The notes below the pieces were generated by a model, which was not told the DNA's origin, did not search any database, and was given only the letters and a program-made list of their open reading frames with translations. The position numbers and the translations under genes were made by a program. A stretch of DNA of 64,000 nucleotides, from positions 277,661 through 341,660 of the forward strand of contig CAWAUC010000020.1 of NCBI GenBank assembly GCA_963785045.1, written 5' to 3'. Below are positions 5,801 through 18,275 of this stretch, one piece after another (within the stretch, counting starts at the first letter, position 1; each line of letters starts with the position of its first letter). Origin of the DNA: an uncultured delta proteobacterium. Its GTDB lineage: Bacteria; Desulfobacterota; Desulfobacteria; Desulfobacterales; SpSt-501.

Positions 5801-6973
5801 ATGAGCGAATACATCGAACACGACCGGCAGCAGGTTTCGGTCGGCATCGTCGCAAAGAAGCACTTCGCCTTCGCGGCGCCGCCGAACGCGATGGAGCTCG
5901 AATGCGGCGCCCGGCTGGGGCCGGTCACCATCGCCTACGAAACCTACGGCCGCCTGGCCCCGGACCGCAGGAACGCGGTGCTGGTCCTGCACGCCCTCTC
6001 GGGGGATTCCCACGTGGCCGGCTACTATACAGCGGCGGATGAGAAGCCCGGGTGGTGGGACTGCATGGTGGGGCCCGGCAAGGGCATCGACACGGACACC
6101 TATTTCGTCGTCTGCGCCAATATCCTCGGCAGCTGCATGGGCTCGACCGGGCCTTCCAGCGTGAACCCCGCCACCGGCCGGGCGTACGGCCTGGACTTCC
6201 CGGTGGTCACCATCGGCGACATGGTCACCGCACAAAAGGCCCTCATTGACCACCTGGGCATCGAGAAGCTTTTGTGCGTGGTCGGGGGCTCCATCGGCGG
6301 CATGCAGGTGCTGGAGTGGAGCGCGCGCTACCCGGAGATGGTCTTTTCCGCCATTCCGCTTGCCACCACCATGCGGCACTCGGCGCTGGCCATCGCCTTC
6401 AACGAGGTCGCCCGGCAGTCGATCATGGCGGACCCGCACTGGAATCACGGCAACTATTACGGCGGCCAAAAACCGGGCCTCGGCCTGGCGGTGGCGCGGA
6501 TGATCGCTCACATCACCTATCTCTCCGATGAGTCCATGCGCCTGAAGTTCGGCCGCCGGCTCCAGGACAAAAACGATTTCTCCTTCAACTTCGACGCCGA
6601 CTTCCAGGTGGAGAGCTACCTGCGCTACCAGGGGACGAAATTCGTGGAGCGCTTCGACGCCAACTCGTTTCTCTATATCACCAAGGCGGCGGACTACTTC
6701 GACCTGGGCAAGCAGCACGGGGAGGGCTCTGCGGTCAAGGCCTGTTCCAAGGCCCAGGCTAAATTCCTGGTAATCTCCTTCACCTCGGACTGGCTTTACC
6801 CGACCTACCAGGCCAGGAAGATAGTGAAAGCCTTGAAGAAAAACGGTCGGGATGTGAGCTTCTGTGAAATCGAGGCCGAATGGGGCCACGACGCGTTTCT
6901 GATCCCCGGAGAACGCCTGAAGACGTTGATCCATGGATTTCTGGAGCGGGTGCACGATGAATTCGCCGCCTAA
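5801..6973 (+). CDS. metX: homoserine O-acetyltransferase
   Basis: 390 aa alpha/beta hydrolase with MetX-typical blocks (LECGARLGPVTIAYETYG, VLVLHALSGDSH, VVGGSIGGMQVLEW, GHDAFL). It is followed by an overlapping metW. Confidence 0.9.
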   Translation: MSEYIEHDRQQVSVGIVAKKHFAFAAPPNAMELECGARLGPVTIAYETYGRLAPDRRNAVLVLHALSGDSHVAGYYTAADEKPGWWDCMVGPGKGIDTDTYFVVCANILGSCMGSTGPSSVNPATGRAYGLDFPVVTIGDMVTAQKALIDHLGIEKLLCVVGGSIGGMQVLEWSARYPEMVFSAIPLATTMRHSALAIAFNEVARQSIMADPHWNHGNYYGGQKPGLGLAVARMIAHITYLSDESMRLKFGRRLQDKNDFSFNFDADFQVESYLRYQGTKFVERFDANSFLYITKAADYFDLGKQHGEGSAVKACSKAQAKFLVISFTSDWLYPTYQARKIVKALKKNGRDVSFCEIEAEWGHDAFLIPGERLKTLIHGFLERVHDEFAA

Positions 6974-7574
6974 CCTCATCCGCTACGACCTGCAGCGCAT
7001 CGCCTCCTGGATCGAACCTGGCTCGCGGGTGCTGGATCTAGGCTGCGGCGAGGGCGACCTGTTGCAGCACCTGATCGCCCGCAAGGGGGTGACCGGAACC
7101 GGCATCGAGCACAACGAGGAGAAGGTCGCCCGCTGCATCGAGAAGGGGCTTTCGGTCCTGCAGGGCGACATCAGCGAGGAGGTCCTCGACTATCCCGACA
7201 ACGCTTTCGACTACGTCATCCTGAGCCAGACCCTGCAGCAGGTCTACGAGCCGGCAGCCTTGATCCGCTCCATGCTGCGCATCGGCCACAAGGGCATCGT
7301 GAGCTTTCCGAACTTCAGCCACTGGGGAATCCGGCTGCAAGTGATCTTCACCGGCTACGCCCCGGTCTCCCGCCAGCTCCCCCACCAATGGTACGAAACA
7401 CCCAACATCCGGGTGATCACCCTGAAAGATTTCCGGAAGTTCGTCCATGAGGTGGGGCTGCGGGTCCTCAATGAGGTTGCCATCAACACCCACTCCCAGG
7501 ATCGCTACGGCCGCATCATCGCCTTCCTGCCGAACCTGAGGGCGACGTACGGGATTTATTTGATCGGAAAGTAA
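6957..7574 (+). CDS. metW: methionine biosynthesis protein MetW
   Basis: SAM-MTase-like motif VLDLGCGEGDLL and the typical metX-metW overlap. The preferred start is MNSPPN at 6957; the ORF track begins at 6933. Confidence 0.85.
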   Translation: MNSPPNLIRYDLQRIASWIEPGSRVLDLGCGEGDLLQHLIARKGVTGTGIEHNEEKVARCIEKGLSVLQGDISEEVLDYPDNAFDYVILSQTLQQVYEPAALIRSMLRIGHKGIVSFPNFSHWGIRLQVIFTGYAPVSRQLPHQWYETPNIRVITLKDFRKFVHEVGLRVLNEVAINTHSQDRYGRIIAFLPNLRATYGIYLIGK

Positions 7575-10522: not shown

Positions 10523-12391
10523 ATGATGCCGAAGACGATGAACACCTACCTGCGTGATCTGGTTCCCGAAGCGGTCCTGGGGCAGCGCACGCAGCACCGG
10601 GAGGGCCGCTGTCATCTGGTGCTTGGCTACCGGGATGAGCATCTGTTGGCGAAAATGGGCATCAACTGCGACACGCTCGGCCCCAAGCTGGTCGCCTGCA
10701 TGTGGGACGAGGATCCGGTGCTCGAAATCGGCGGCTACCTGGTGGTGGACAATCTGGCCATGGGCTCACCCTCCATGGGCGGCATCCGAATGCTGCCCGA
10801 CCTCACCCCGGCCGACGTTCACAACCTCGCCCGCGGCATGACCCTCAAGAACGCCGCGGCCAACCTGCCGTTCGGCGGGGGCAAAGCCGGTATCGTGGCC
10901 GCCGCGGACCTGTCGCCGGAGGCGCACACGGAGGTGATCCGCCGGTTCGCCCGCCTGATTCGCCGCTATCGGGACATTTACGTGCCGGGGCCGGACGTCG
11001 GATCCAACGATGCCGACATGAAGACCATCGCCATCGAAAACGGCCTGGAGGGCGCCGTGTCCAAGCCGGCGGAAATGGGCGGCAACCGCATCGACGAACT
11101 GGGCGCGGCCGGCGGCGGGGTGGTCATTGCCCTGGAGCGGCTGATAGAGACCATGCCCCGTCTCAGCGTCCTGCCGCAGTTTGCCCGGCTGCGGATGCCG
11201 GCACCGCAGGAACTTACCGTCATCATCCAGGGCTTTGGGGCCGTCGGCGCTCACGCCGCCCGCATTCTGCACGAACGGCTGCCGGACGCCCGGGTCATCG
11301 GCATCAGCGACCGGGAGGGCTACCTCTTCGACACCTCCGGGCTGGGCGTGGAGGAATTGTTCGCGCGCTGGCAGAAGCACGGCACGGTGACCGGGGGCTG
11401 TTACCAGGAGCAGATCAAAGTCGGCGGGCAGCGCCCTGCCATGCACTTTTCCACCGCAGCCGACAACCTGCTGCGGGAATCGGCCTTCTGCCTCATCCCG
11501 GCGGCCCCGGTGTTCAACTACCTGGGGGTGCTGCCCTCGGACGCAAGCTCCATGAGTGTCGACCGAATGGGCGCCTGGTCGCTGATCGTCGAGGGGGCCA
11601 ACACCTACTCGCCGGATCCGAACCGCAAGGCCGCGCGTACCCGCATGGAGCAGGTGGTCTATCGCTTGAAAGGCGTCATGATCGCCAATGACTATCTCGT
11701 CAATTCCGGAGGCGTCATCTTTGCCGCCCAGGAGCAGATCGTCCCGACGCCGGAAGCGCTCCGGGTCCCCGAGCGCATGCTCGGCGACCGGGAGGCGGTG
11801 GAGGCGTGGCTGCGGCAGCACGCGGCGGGTTTTGCCGACCTTTCCGAAAAGCGCCTGGAGGCCGGCCGTGCCGGCCGCGAAAAAGTCATCCGCCACAACA
11901 TGACCGAATTGGTCGACCTGCTCGCATCCAGCCCCGAGCTGCTGCCCTGCCAGGCGGCCGAACGCATCAGCGTGCGCCGCCTGGCGGCCCGGGAGAGCGA
12001 ACGCACGGCGAAGGACGTCATGGAACCGATCCCGACGGTACGGATCGATGCGTTGCTGCCGGAGGCCGCGGGCCTGATCGTTCAGAGCCGCAGCAACATC
12101 ATCGCCGTTCTGGATCCGGACGGGGCCATTGCGGGAGTCGTGACCACCTGGGATATCACCCGCGCCATCGCCGAAGGGGTCTGCGAAGGCAGTCTGGACA
12201 AGATCATGACGCGGAAGGTGATCTCGGCCGCACCCGCATCACGCATCCTGGACATCCTGCGCGAGCTCGAACAGAACCGCATCTCGGCCATGCCGGTCGT
12301 GGAGGCCGGCCGGGTGCTGGGGATGGTCAACTCGGATCTTCTGGCCCAGCGCTACCTGACGCGGCTGCTGCGCACGCAGGAGGCGGGCTGA
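10523..12391 (+). CDS. Glu/Leu/Phe/Val dehydrogenase family protein fused to a C-terminal CBS-domain pair
   Basis: The catalytic-Lys block is KNAAANLPFGGGKAGI and the Rossmann motif is IQGFGAVGAH. The C-terminal ~130 aa hold two CBS repeats (DVMEPIPTVRID..., IMTRKVISAAP...ISAMPVV). Confidence 0.8.
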   Translation: MMPKTMNTYLRDLVPEAVLGQRTQHREGRCHLVLGYRDEHLLAKMGINCDTLGPKLVACMWDEDPVLEIGGYLVVDNLAMGSPSMGGIRMLPDLTPADVHNLARGMTLKNAAANLPFGGGKAGIVAAADLSPEAHTEVIRRFARLIRRYRDIYVPGPDVGSNDADMKTIAIENGLEGAVSKPAEMGGNRIDELGAAGGGVVIALERLIETMPRLSVLPQFARLRMPAPQELTVIIQGFGAVGAHAARILHERLPDARVIGISDREGYLFDTSGLGVEELFARWQKHGTVTGGCYQEQIKVGGQRPAMHFSTAADNLLRESAFCLIPAAPVFNYLGVLPSDASSMSVDRMGAWSLIVEGANTYSPDPNRKAARTRMEQVVYRLKGVMIANDYLVNSGGVIFAAQEQIVPTPEALRVPERMLGDREAVEAWLRQHAAGFADLSEKRLEAGRAGREKVIRHNMTELVDLLASSPELLPCQAAERISVRRLAARESERTAKDVMEPIPTVRIDALLPEAAGLIVQSRSNIIAVLDPDGAIAGVVTTWDITRAIAEGVCEGSLDKIMTRKVISAAPASRILDILRELEQNRISAMPVVEAGRVLGMVNSDLLAQRYLTRLLRTQEAG

Positions 12392-16192: not shown

Positions 16193-16251
16193 CTCCTCCT
16201 GGGGTCGATCCCAAAAACAATGCGGCCGCGGGGGATGCGCCCCACGGCCTC

Positions 16252-16290
16252 AAATAAAAAACCGCGGGGCCTTGGGAGAGGGCCTCGCGG
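16252..16290 (-). terminator. attenuator-type intrinsic terminator in the trpD leader
   Basis: The minus-strand RNA is CCGCGAGGCC-CUCUCCCAA-GGCCCCGCGG followed by UUUUUUAUUU, about 40 nt after the leader-peptide stop. A second 10-bp hairpin (16224-16249) followed by UUGUUUUU lies between it and the trpD RBS. Confidence 0.6.
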
Positions 16291-16330
16291 TTTTGGATTT
16301 CAGCTGTTCACGGCAGGCGCACCCCCCCCC

Positions 16331-16384
16331 TCAGGTGATGCACCACCACCAGTTGCCCAATGAAAACGTATGATCCAGCGGCAT
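16331..16384 (-). CDS. Trp-rich leader peptide (17 aa, MPLDHTFSLGNWWWCIT)
   Basis: The minus-strand reading is ATG CCG CTG GAT CAT ACG TTT TCA TTG GGC AAC TGG TGG TGG TGC ATC ACC TGA. It has three consecutive Trp codons, lies upstream of trpD, and is followed by a terminator. Confidence 0.6.
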   Translation of the reverse strand: MPLDHTFSLGNWWWCIT

Positions 16385-16406
16385 AACGGTGTTCCATGAT
16401 AGATTT

Positions 16407-16435
16407 TTAGTATCCTCCGGGTCAGACGATGTCAA
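16407..16435 (-). promoter_or_regulatory. possible sigma-70 promoter for the trp leader
   Basis: On the minus strand the sequence is TTGACA-N17-TACTAA, about 20 nt upstream of the leader ATG. The -10 element is weak. Confidence 0.35.
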
Positions 16436-16599: not shown

Positions 16600-16997
16600 A
16601 TGACCGCCTGCTTTTCCCAACCGGATATCGACCAGGCTCCCTGTGTGGCAAAGGCTGAAGGGTTGGATGCCGATTTGCTCAGGGCACGGGTTGCCGAGGG
16701 TCGGATCGTATTGCCGATGAATAGAAACCGAAAGGCGAATCCGGTGGGGATCGGAATGGGTTTGCAAACCAAGGTTAATGCCTCCATCGGCACCTCGACG
16801 GACATTGTCGATCTAGATGCGGAAATCCGCAAGGCCAATTCAATACCGCTCTTTTTGCTCAGGATGCGATGAGGATTCGCAACCGGCGATTGCCCGACTG
16901 TGATTCGAAAGTGTGCACCATGTGCGGGGCATTTTGCGCAAACCGAGCCTCCAACAAGCTGTTTGCCGCTGCACTGGAACATGGCCAGAAGACATAG
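16600..16997 (+). pseudogene. thiC: phosphomethylpyrimidine synthase ThiC remnant (large internal deletion)
   Basis: The N-terminal piece VAKAEGLDADLLRARVAEGRIVLPMNRNRKANPVGIGMGLQTKVNASIGTS matches the ThiC N-region. In a second frame, AQDAMRIRNRRLPDCDSKVCTMCGAFCANRASNKLF matches the ThiC C-terminus with its CxxCG motif. About 300 aa of the catalytic core is absent. Confidence 0.75.
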
Positions 16998-17162
16998 TCA
17001 GATTTCCCTGGCCGTTCGAGCTTGACCAAACGGCATGTGAAACCGAAGGCGATCGCCTAGGATTTGGCCAATCGAATTTGCGGCCTATTTTCTTTGACTT
17101 GATCGATGGCCGTGACTGTTATATTGTATATACACTGTCATCAATCGAGTCGGAGATGCATC

Positions 17163-17408
17163 ATGAGCAACCAAATGATCGTCCGGATTCAACCGGAGCT
17201 GAAAGCCAAGGTGAACACCCTTGCCAAGGCGGAGGGCAAAAGCGTCAGTGAGGTCGTTCGGGAACTGCTCGACGGTTACGTAAAAAATCGCGATATTAGC
17301 TCCTATATCGACGACCTGTGGGATCGTGTCGGAAGCAACCTGAAAACGCGCGGAGTCCGGCGTTCCGACATTCAGCGCGCCATAAAAGACGCGAGGATAA
17401 AAAGGTGA
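17163..17408 (+). CDS. ribbon-helix-helix (CopG-like) antitoxin
   Basis: 81 aa. MIVRIQPELKAKVNTLAKAEGKSVSEVVRELL is a typical RHH strand-helix-helix. Its stop overlaps the GTG start of the downstream PIN gene. Confidence 0.75.
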   Translation: MSNQMIVRIQPELKAKVNTLAKAEGKSVSEVVRELLDGYVKNRDISSYIDDLWDRVGSNLKTRGVRRSDIQRAIKDARIKR

Positions 17409-17821
17409 CCCGCGTCGTCATCGACACGAATGTGTTTGTTTCGTCTTTTTTCGGCGGCAACCCGCGCAAAATTATCGATCGGTGGAAAACGGGCAAAATC
17501 ACCCTGTGCCTTTCAAGGCCCATCATCGATGAATATGTTGATGTCCTTCGCCGCCTCGGGCTGCAGAACGAGAAGGAACTGGATGATTTGCTTTCGCTCT
17601 TTGCACAAGGTTTTCATGTCCTCTTTTCCGCCCGGACCCCGAAATTAAATGTCGTCCTGGAGGACCCGGACGATAACAAATTCATCGAATGTGCCGTAGC
17701 CCTGAAAGCGACATTTTTAGTGTCCGGGGACAAATATCTCATCGGTATCAAGGATTATATGAGAATTAAGATCGTTTCCCTTAAAGATTTTCTTGGCCTT
17801 GCCCGAAATGCTGAAGACTGA
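17405..17821 (+). CDS. PIN-domain toxin (TIGR00305-like)
   Basis: VVIDTNVFVSSFF..., DPDDNKFIECAVA and FLVSGDKYL are the acidic PIN motifs. The GTG start at 17405 overlaps the antitoxin stop. Confidence 0.8.
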   Translation: MTRVVIDTNVFVSSFFGGNPRKIIDRWKTGKITLCLSRPIIDEYVDVLRRLGLQNEKELDDLLSLFAQGFHVLFSARTPKLNVVLEDPDDNKFIECAVALKATFLVSGDKYLIGIKDYMRIKIVSLKDFLGLARNAED

Positions 17822-17882
17822 ACCGCCATCATTTAGAAAAAATAAGAAAAACAAAAGGAAAACGCCAAACCGGAGGCCGGCC

Positions 17883-18275
17883 ATGACCAGGGATGAGCAA
17901 ATCGCCTACTGGGTCGAGGAATCAGAGAGGGACATGGCGGTCATGCATAGCCTGCTTGAAAACCGGCATTACACATGGGCGCTTTTTGTTGGCCACCTGG
18001 TTCTGGAAAAACTGCTGAAGGCGCTCTACGTAAAAAATGTCGGGCTGCAGGTGCCGCAGGTCCACAACCTTCTCAAGATAGCAAGAACATGCGGCTTGCG
18101 GATGTCCGACGAACAGGAGGAGTTTTTCTTGGAGGTGACGACATACAACATCAAGACGCGATATCCCGACTACAAAAAAAGCTTTCTACGCAAGGCAAAC
18201 GAAAAATTTACCTTGGATAGGATCGCACGGATCGAGGAGATGCAAAAATGGCTCAGAGAAATAATAGCCGGATAA
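17883..18275 (+). CDS. HEPN domain protein (HEPN-MNT toxin-antitoxin component)
   Basis: About 130 aa, helical (AYWVEESERDMAVMHSLLENRHYTWALFVGHLVLEKLLKALY, HNLLKI). It overlaps the downstream nucleotidyltransferase gene. Confidence 0.72.
   Translation: MTRDEQIAYWVEESERDMAVMHSLLENRHYTWALFVGHLVLEKLLKALYVKNVGLQVPQVHNLLKIARTCGLRMSDEQEEFFLEVTTYNIKTRYPDYKKSFLRKANEKFTLDRIARIEEMQKWLREIIAG

Follow-up and report, generated by a model that had tools for sequence, protein, structure and literature searches.

Leader elements upstream of trpD

In a 64,000-nucleotide stretch of contig CAWAUC010000020.1 from an uncultured delta proteobacterium of the Desulfobacterales (this whole stretch is called the window below), the minus strand carries trpD, encoding anthranilate phosphoribosyltransferase (16186-15101), and just upstream of it lies a short region that an earlier note, made from the sequence alone, had read as a candidate ribosome-mediated tryptophan attenuator. 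The gene product was confirmed as a true TrpD by its matches to PF00591 and PF02885 and by its score with TIGR01245 (385 bits against a cut-off of 199), and it was 93-94% identical to proteins from metagenome-assembled genomes labelled Desulfobacterales or Deltaproteobacteria. Comparing start codons with relatives placed the conserved start at ATG 16186, 8 nt past GGAGG, with the Shine-Dalgarno (SD) sequence AGGAGGAG at 16200-16193. A start at ATG 16192 was dropped, as the related locus L001 has GTG there and locus L003 lacks that codon. The gene also stood alone as the note had stated: tblastn searches of the 64-kb window with TrpE, TrpG, TrpC, TrpF and TrpB from related operons matched trpD only, TrpA not being queried.

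Reading the minus strand, we located each element that the note had described, namely a promoter-like pair, a 17-codon mini-open reading frame (mini-ORF) with three consecutive Trp codons (WWW), a run of nine G, a terminator hairpin (T1), a second strong hairpin and the trpD ribosome-binding site, all at the positions it had given. The putative promoter consists of a -35 hexamer TTGACA (16435-16430) and, after a 17-nt spacer, a weak -10-like hexamer TACTAA (16412-16407) whose last base is A. This pair was present in the sequence as claimed, but a simple promoter scan omitted it because the -10 ends in A and listed instead CTGACC (16425-16420) and TATCAT (16401-16396), separated by 18 nt. Downstream, a 5'-proximal ATG (16397-16395) is out of frame with the Trp codons, and the leader ORF itself runs from ATG to UGA at 16384-16331 and reads MPLDHTFSLGNWWWCIT, 17 codons followed by the stop. 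Its three Trp codons UGG UGG UGG (TGGTGGTGG, 16351-16343) form the candidate sensing site, and its stop codon UGA (16333-16331) is immediately followed by the G9 run (16330-16322).

The T1 stem begins 37 nt past the leader stop, close to the distance of about 40 nt reported before, and the hairpin AAAACCGCGAGGCC-CUCUCCCAA-GGCCCCGCGGUUUU (16294-16258) is followed by a U6AUUU tail extending to 16252. The second hairpin, UGAGGCCGUGGGGC-GCAU-CCCCCGCGGCCGCA (16252-16221), proved to be more than a strong stem-loop: because a tail UUGUUUUU (16220-16213) follows the stem, it is itself an intrinsic terminator, hereafter T2, and with its tail the element spans 16252-16211. Among 31 terminator-like sites in the window, only that of trpD was preceded by a mini-ORF in which a regulatory amino acid fitting the downstream gene is repeated in a run. 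The motif TGGTGGTGG alone was found at six positions in the window, where shuffles give an expectation of 0.48, and the other five copies (6363, 10740, 13683, 38009 and 53522) lie inside the spans of long ORFs.

Conservation and alternative pairings of the leader RNA

Related TrpD loci were gathered from genome and metagenome contigs and by exact-protein look-ups and were scanned with our own search for a W-W mini-ORF plus terminator, and a covariance model (R1) was built from 20 sequences. In agreement with our own search, R1 found a single copy in the window (16357-16215, 125 bits) and one copy per locus in 33 other loci (82-148 bits), further strong matches being only reverse-strand echoes of the hairpins. 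These loci, numbered with the prefix L, belong to Desulfobacterales and Syntrophobacteria, with TrpD identity down to 47%, and the module stood directly before a solitary trpD in 18 of them and before trpE of intact or decayed trp operons in 15, the gene order in the trpE-led relatives being trpE-G-D-C-F-B-A. Solitary trpD was found in the window clade (L001, L002, L027, L028, L030-L033 and L065; peptide MERH(R/K)PL..NWWWHIT before the stop), in a sister group with 77-80% TrpD identity (L003, L066/L067, L068 and L071; peptide ends ..RNWWWRIS, ..RNWWWRCS, ..RNWRWRVS and ..RNWRRIS) and in L009, L046, L060 and L014 (WWCW). The trpE-led group comprised L004-L006 (..YWWWHSSNREVCPAALI), L007, L008, L010, L013, L038, L040, L058 and L059 (..NNWWWWQNSREGFVRR), L069/L070 of the Syntrophobacteria (..GNWWWLTS, then UGA and a G-run as in the window), and L073 and L074.

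The earlier note had suggested aligning the trpD upstream regions of relatives, and had reasoned that a mini-ORF missing from them would speak against an attenuator. In the alignment, every locus with the module retained an in-frame, Trp-rich mini-ORF with start and stop kept and no frameshift, N-terminal and non-Trp residues varied (for example MERHRPLGHTFSLGNWWWHIT; MVRISLKHTITASLGNWWWLTS; MRSTSISINNWWWWQNSREGFVRR; MKMKSNLKPIINLWWCWEK...), and compensatory changes were present in the RNA stems. The Trp site itself appeared as WWW, WWWW, WWCW or WCW; WWCW was seen in several loci (L038, L046, L060 and L014), with the Cys codon UGC recurring within the Trp run. Erosion of the Trp cluster was also observed, to NWRRIS with one Trp codon in L003, WRW in L071 and WCW in L031. 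The TTGACA hexamer was invariant among all clade A relatives, inside a conserved block AATGCTTGACATTC, and was likewise found 5' of the leader in L009, L014 and L004.

Comparison of the aligned leaders then supported a terminated fold made of the 1:2 hairpin, T1 and T2. Across the family, this fold was 91.9% paired in a MAFFT alignment of 20 sequences and 91.8% paired in 29 model-aligned sequences, with changes on both sides in 21 and 24 of the 43 pairs, respectively; none of 500 shuffles reached these values, and slid controls were only 42-58% paired. T1 and T2 also emerged from RNAalifold without guidance, 17 of the 27 predicted pairs being compensatory, and in each of the two stems 10-11 of 16 pairs showed compensatory changes. 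The window T1 had an energy of -19.6 to -21.3 kcal/mol. Segment 1 (GGUGGUGCAUCACCU, 16347-16333) pairs with 16326-16312 in the 1:2 hairpin, which forms without a ribosome in RNAfold at about -20 kcal/mol, and helix 1 was 87-88% paired across the family, mostly with one-sided changes.

The antiterminator, which the note had left undefined, was located by folding RNAs that ended just short of the T1 3' arm and in which the nucleotides covered by the ribosome were barred from pairing. With the ribosome on the Trp codons, a long helix formed in every clade between segment 2 (16330-16310, composed of G9, UGC and GCCUGCCGU) and segment 3, which is the entire T1 5' arm and loop (AAAACCGCGAGGCCCUCUCCC, 16294-16274) and can pair either with segment 2, giving the antiterminator, or with segment 4, giving the terminator. 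The pairs in the window join 16329-16322 to 16281-16274, 16318-16315 (GCCU) to 16285-16282 (AGGC), 16314-16313 to 16288-16287 and 16311-16310 to 16291-16290. This 2:3 helix reached -21.9 kcal/mol in the window, about equal to T1, and -16 to -28 kcal/mol over the clades, so that the outcome named beforehand as counting against attenuation, no plausible antiterminator, was not what we saw. When the ribosome was instead masked at the stop codon, the G-run was covered and only -7.7 kcal/mol of 2:3 pairing was left in the window; in other clades the stop lies inside or past segment 2, leaving -0.2 to -8.4 kcal/mol.

Across 20 and 29 sequences the 2:3 helix was 82.3% and 82.7% paired, as opposed to 49-57% when slid, 7 of its 16 pairs were changed on both sides, and its covariation score was reached by none of 500 shuffles. 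In five columns of segment 3, changes were matched both by the segment 2 partner and by the segment 4 partner, the pattern that helices excluding one another should leave. Direct-path barriers from the 2:3 helix to the T1 fold were 11-23 kcal/mol. Two other pairings were discarded. Pairing of the G-run with the T1 loop alone was too narrow, since the masked folds also pair GCCUGCCGU with the T1 5' arm, and a role of the T1 loop CCUCUCC as an anti-SD sequence against the trpD ribosome-binding site was dropped on account of the variable loop of clade B (ACUCC, GCUCC, CAUCC).

Proposed mechanism and rival explanations

The region is, we conclude, probably a transcription attenuator of the ribosome-mediated, leader-peptide kind, through which expression of trpD would follow the supply of charged tRNA-Trp. 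Transcription would start just downstream of the TTGACA promoter, a start site predicted from the hexamers, and a ribosome would translate the mini-ORF as RNA polymerase moves ahead. When Trp is plentiful, a ribosome at the UGA would cover the G-run that starts one base later and bar segment 2 from the T1 5' arm, allowing T1 to form and transcription to stop at about 16252. When Trp is scarce, the ribosome would stall at the three UGG codons, hide segment 1 and free segment 2, which could then pair with 16294-16274 before the T1 3' arm is made, preventing T1 and permitting read-through. If the mini-ORF were not translated at all, the 1:2 hairpin would sequester segment 2 and T1 would again form.

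The region has the leader ORF, the terminator, the antiterminator and the 1:2 hairpin with matching stop placement that characterize leader-peptide trp attenuators. The earlier reading gains its support from the observed elements, their conservation, the compensatory changes seen in both terminators and in the 2:3 helix and the position of the stop against segment 2, and not from single-sequence energetics; mini-ORF translation and kinetic competition between the folds are what the proposal would presume. Several observations weigh against it. The 2:3 energy was no better than that of shuffles of the same G-rich 35 nt (z = -0.43) and only in the top 5-8% of genomic 35-mers, so the argument for the antiterminator rests on the comparative data, and the covariation is itself spread over only about five clades and hence few events. 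Folding of the whole leader was weak (z = -1.81), and T1 plus T2 won at equilibrium even when a ribosome was stalled, which also holds for the classical system, so that the switch has to operate kinetically. The predicted -10 hexamer is poor. Among the relatives, L003 (2800-3000) has a single Trp codon, its T1 U-tract is interrupted and its T2 has none, and L072 (3800-4012) lacks leader, T1 and T2 while keeping TTGACA about 45 nt before the trpD ribosome-binding site.

The most serious of these points concerns the start codon. All ten close relatives begin the leader at the ATG equivalent to window position 16397 (MERH...), whereas a 1-nt insertion in the window relative to all of them puts this ATG out of frame. 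From there, a 29-codon ORF without a Trp codon runs to UGA 16310-16308, so that initiation at 16397 would have a Trp-free frame read through segment 2 and would lead to constitutive termination. The window has a new in-frame ATG at 16384, 13 nt downstream, which differs from the start codon of the close relatives and has no SD sequence. Whether the window copy still senses Trp is the largest uncertainty of our reading. In the relatives, the leader ATG lies about 3-10 nt past the -10 element, which suggests near-leaderless initiation; the trpEGD mRNA leader of Deinococcus deserti offers a precedent (PMC4007540).

The same facts feed a rival explanation, in which the window module is a decaying relic of a real attenuator family and the insertion has uncoupled the Trp codons from an efficient start close to the 5' end; T1 and T2 would then end most transcripts however much Trp is present, or transcription of trpD would begin elsewhere. 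The out-of-frame start shared by the ten relatives and the bare ATG 16384 agree with such decay, which is under way in related lineages: besides L003 with its one Trp codon and weak tails and L072, which lacks the leader, L030 (~1200-1285) has lost the 26 nt that make up the T1 5' arm and loop. We nevertheless consider a relic unlikely, because 13 nt downstream an in-frame ATG has been retained or has newly arisen, the ORF with its three Trp codons and stop is whole, as are segment 2 and both terminators, the window copy still scores 125 bits with the family model, and the alternative promoter CTGACC-N18-TATCAT would have transcripts begin a few bases upstream of ATG 16384. Control of T1 without a translating ribosome, through a TRAP-like protein, uncharged tRNA (T-box) or a small-molecule riboswitch, has the backing of other terminator/antiterminator controls established for trp genes, and is very improbable here: the sole strictly conserved coding feature is a Trp-codon cluster in an open frame with its stop placed against segment 2, the window held no run of at least five (G/U)AG repeats spaced 2-3 nt as for TRAP, and neither the window nor six relatives matched any Rfam family at gathering thresholds, T-box included.

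Rfam also bears on the comparison with known leaders, which the earlier note had wanted checked against the leader models. Trp_leader (RF00513) matched 16354-16252 at 21.7 bits against a gathering threshold of 41 (E = 0.02-0.04), below what membership takes. It was among the best weak Rfam matches and its full model length was spanned; the sub-threshold list also contained unrelated hairpin-driven matches such as mir-553 and Scr3202. A last rival would have T1 and T2 be ordinary terminators or insulators against upstream transcription and the WWW mini-ORF a product of chance. Tandem terminators often occur where genes end, the upstream region has gene fragments and toxin-antitoxin genes, and TGGTGGTGG is, as noted, repeated in the window. 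Against this, just upstream there is no end of a credible gene on the minus strand, 33 loci keep the mini-ORF with its Trp codons and its distance to T1, always before trpD or trpE, and segment 2 covaries with the T1 5' arm, so that we find a chance origin scarcely credible.

A translating ribosome governing T1 would still leave T2 in the way. T2 followed T1 in 31 of 34 copies and in all clades, the exceptions being L058 and L059 (1152-1300), which lack it through an apparent deletion between two U-rich tails. It lies 20-40 nt before the gene start and must therefore be passed for expression, and no room for a promoter was seen between T2 and the gene. In every sequence, the T1 3' arm and U-tract are complementary to the A-tract and T2 5' arm, and this 4:5 pairing was 97.7% and 95.8% paired versus 52-63% when slid. 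The 4:5 hairpin ranged from -16 to -26 kcal/mol over the sequences versus -20 to -30 kcal/mol for T2 (-24.9 versus -23.3 kcal/mol in the window), and barriers from 4:5 to T2 were 8-15 kcal/mol. T2 would most likely be passed by the freed T1 3' arm pairing with the T2 5' arm. We tentatively propose a six-segment relay, in which 1:2, 3:4 and 5:6 form in the repressed state and a single stall would produce both 2:3 and 4:5, the freed T1 3' arm and U-tract capturing the T2 5' arm and A-tract and both terminators being disarmed. Such a relay is possible, with evidence that cuts both ways: 4:5 covariation is nearly absent (3 pairs, 3-6 doubly changed cells), the conserved core CCG(U/C)G...C(A/G)CGG common to T1 and T2 would yield 4:5 complementarity anyway, and L058 and L059 manage without T2. 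If true, it would combine very tight repression with preserved inducibility, a compact, low-leak attenuation design that could be reused in synthetic circuits.

Origin of the solitary arrangement and comparison with known systems

The note's statement that the leader precedes only trpD stood for the window lineage and needed amending for the family, as relatives carry the same leader before complete trpEGDCFBA operons. Remnants of the lost genes were found at several loci. In L009 (2950-3000), DNA past T2 is homologous to the trpG 3' end of L007, in L038/L040 (860-1480) a TrpE N-terminus (MFTPDF..) stands past T2 and trpD begins only about 490 nt later, and L007 (1600-3000) keeps partial trpE and trpG. 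These remnants suggest that loss of trpEG has repeatedly brought the leader next to trpD, and the occurrence of the same leader type before complete operons argues that the solitary arrangement is derived. On this sequence comparison, we regard the module as ancestral to the trpE-led operons in the group and the window state as a derived operon leader, not a separate invention.

Several metagenome contigs showed trpE and trpG truncated or gone between leader and trpD, with trpD remaining and, in L040 and L007, genes 3' of trpD remaining as well. These gaps could reflect repeated loss of anthranilate synthase or assembly errors; some of the contigs show frameshifts in trpD. A leader retained on trpD after trpEG loss may hint at anthranilate salvage under Trp control. 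In L014, the leader-controlled trpD is followed about 2 kb further on by a second TrpD-like ORF (6220-7077, plus strand), whose product shares 48% identity with the TrpD of the window.

Around the window leader, the region upstream (16600-18275, plus strand) contains a 90-aa ThiC N-terminal fragment, matching PF01964 residues 17-82 only, and RHH antitoxin, PIN and HEPN genes, with a G+C content of 47-53% versus about 65% in trpD. Toxin-antitoxin genes occupy the same upstream spot in L068 and L071, which makes it look like an insertion hotspot. Downstream of trpD are genes for a 235-aa protein with a weak CarboxypepD_reg match and a HAMP-SpoIIE phosphatase. A gene for a 622-aa Glu/Leu/Phe/Val dehydrogenase-CBS fusion (10523-12391, plus strand) also occurs near solitary trpD in L066, L068 and L071, staying close to trpD across the window clade and sister group while the intervening genes differ. 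No tRNA genes were found near the leaders.

In relatives (L008, at ~570-360 on the minus strand, L046, L009, L013, L006, L069 and L070), and not in the window, a second, divergently transcribed attenuator was observed at a distance of 150-300 nt on the upstream side of the trp leader. Here a separate TTGACA promoter and a leader peptide MISRQSQQDFYYFYYWPGTRLLMD (FYYFYYW) rich in Phe, Tyr and Trp are followed by one terminator and then by aroK, identified as shikimate kinase from the L009 gene (PF01202, 135 bits). Its position before aroK suggests that the group uses the mechanism for aromatic-pathway genes, a further point in favour of the attenuator reading for trpD.

Taken together, the trp leaders extend classical Trp attenuation to uncultured Desulfobacterales and Syntrophobacteria, which curated RNA models leave uncovered, and the covariance model with its 34 sequences is a resource for annotation. 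The variants without T1, without T2 or without the whole leader, and those in which WWW has become WCW, WRW or a single W, constitute natural experiments, and the persistence of the leader before trpD once trpEG had been lost or moved is relevant to how a regulatory module can outlast the break-up of its operon. Confirmation of the relay, or of the link between trpEG loss and anthranilate salvage, would raise the interest of the finding.

The mechanism itself is known, being of the Escherichia coli trpL type (RF00513), and what we describe is an uncurated lineage of it from an uncultured group of sulfate reducers and no surprise in kind. Like trpL, the window leader has a short ORF with tandem Trp codons, a stop just before segment 2, a 1:2/2:3/3:4 logic ending in an intrinsic terminator and a place upstream of a trp biosynthesis gene. 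It differs from trpL in its number of Trp codons, which is three where trpL has two, in a second terminator after T1 and in control of trpD alone instead of trpEDCBA, and in most relatives the leader start is only a few bases from the predicted transcription start. The his attenuator of Salmonella and E. coli comprises six segments, with A:B, C:D and E:F alternating with B:C and D:E. It resembles the proposed relay in that one stall spreads along a six-segment chain via two pairings, as 2:3 and then 4:5 would do here; in the his leader the last hairpin alone terminates, whereas both 3:4 and 5:6 have U-tracts in our leader, and its codons are for His rather than Trp, the 4:5 step here being one that we infer from complementarity.

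Placement on part of a divided pathway has a counterpart in Sinorhizobium meliloti, where a trpL attenuator precedes trpE(G), trpDC and trpFBA form separate operons, and the released attenuator RNA reaches trpDC in trans (PMC6614838). Both systems have split trp genes with a leader-peptide attenuator on one unit, which is trpE(G) there and, in cis, trpD here. The D. deserti trpEGD leader (PMC4007540) likewise starts its Trp leader peptide at or next to the transcription start; it belongs to another phylum and shows no sequence relation, and the window has about 16 nt between its in-frame ATG and the predicted start. Tandem terminators have been reported for the rimP leader (PMC2965389), and the papers returned by our literature searches on tandem terminators included none in amino-acid leader peptides. 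In the literature searched, we found no description of a trp attenuator in delta-proteobacteria or Desulfobacterota; Rodionov et al. 2004 (PMC545781) was ruled out as a prior description, the word 'tryptophan' occurring in it 0 times. What is new about the leader, set beside these known systems, is that its lineage is uncurated, that one terminator follows another, that the leader ORF is nearly leaderless and that the leader sits on trpD only.

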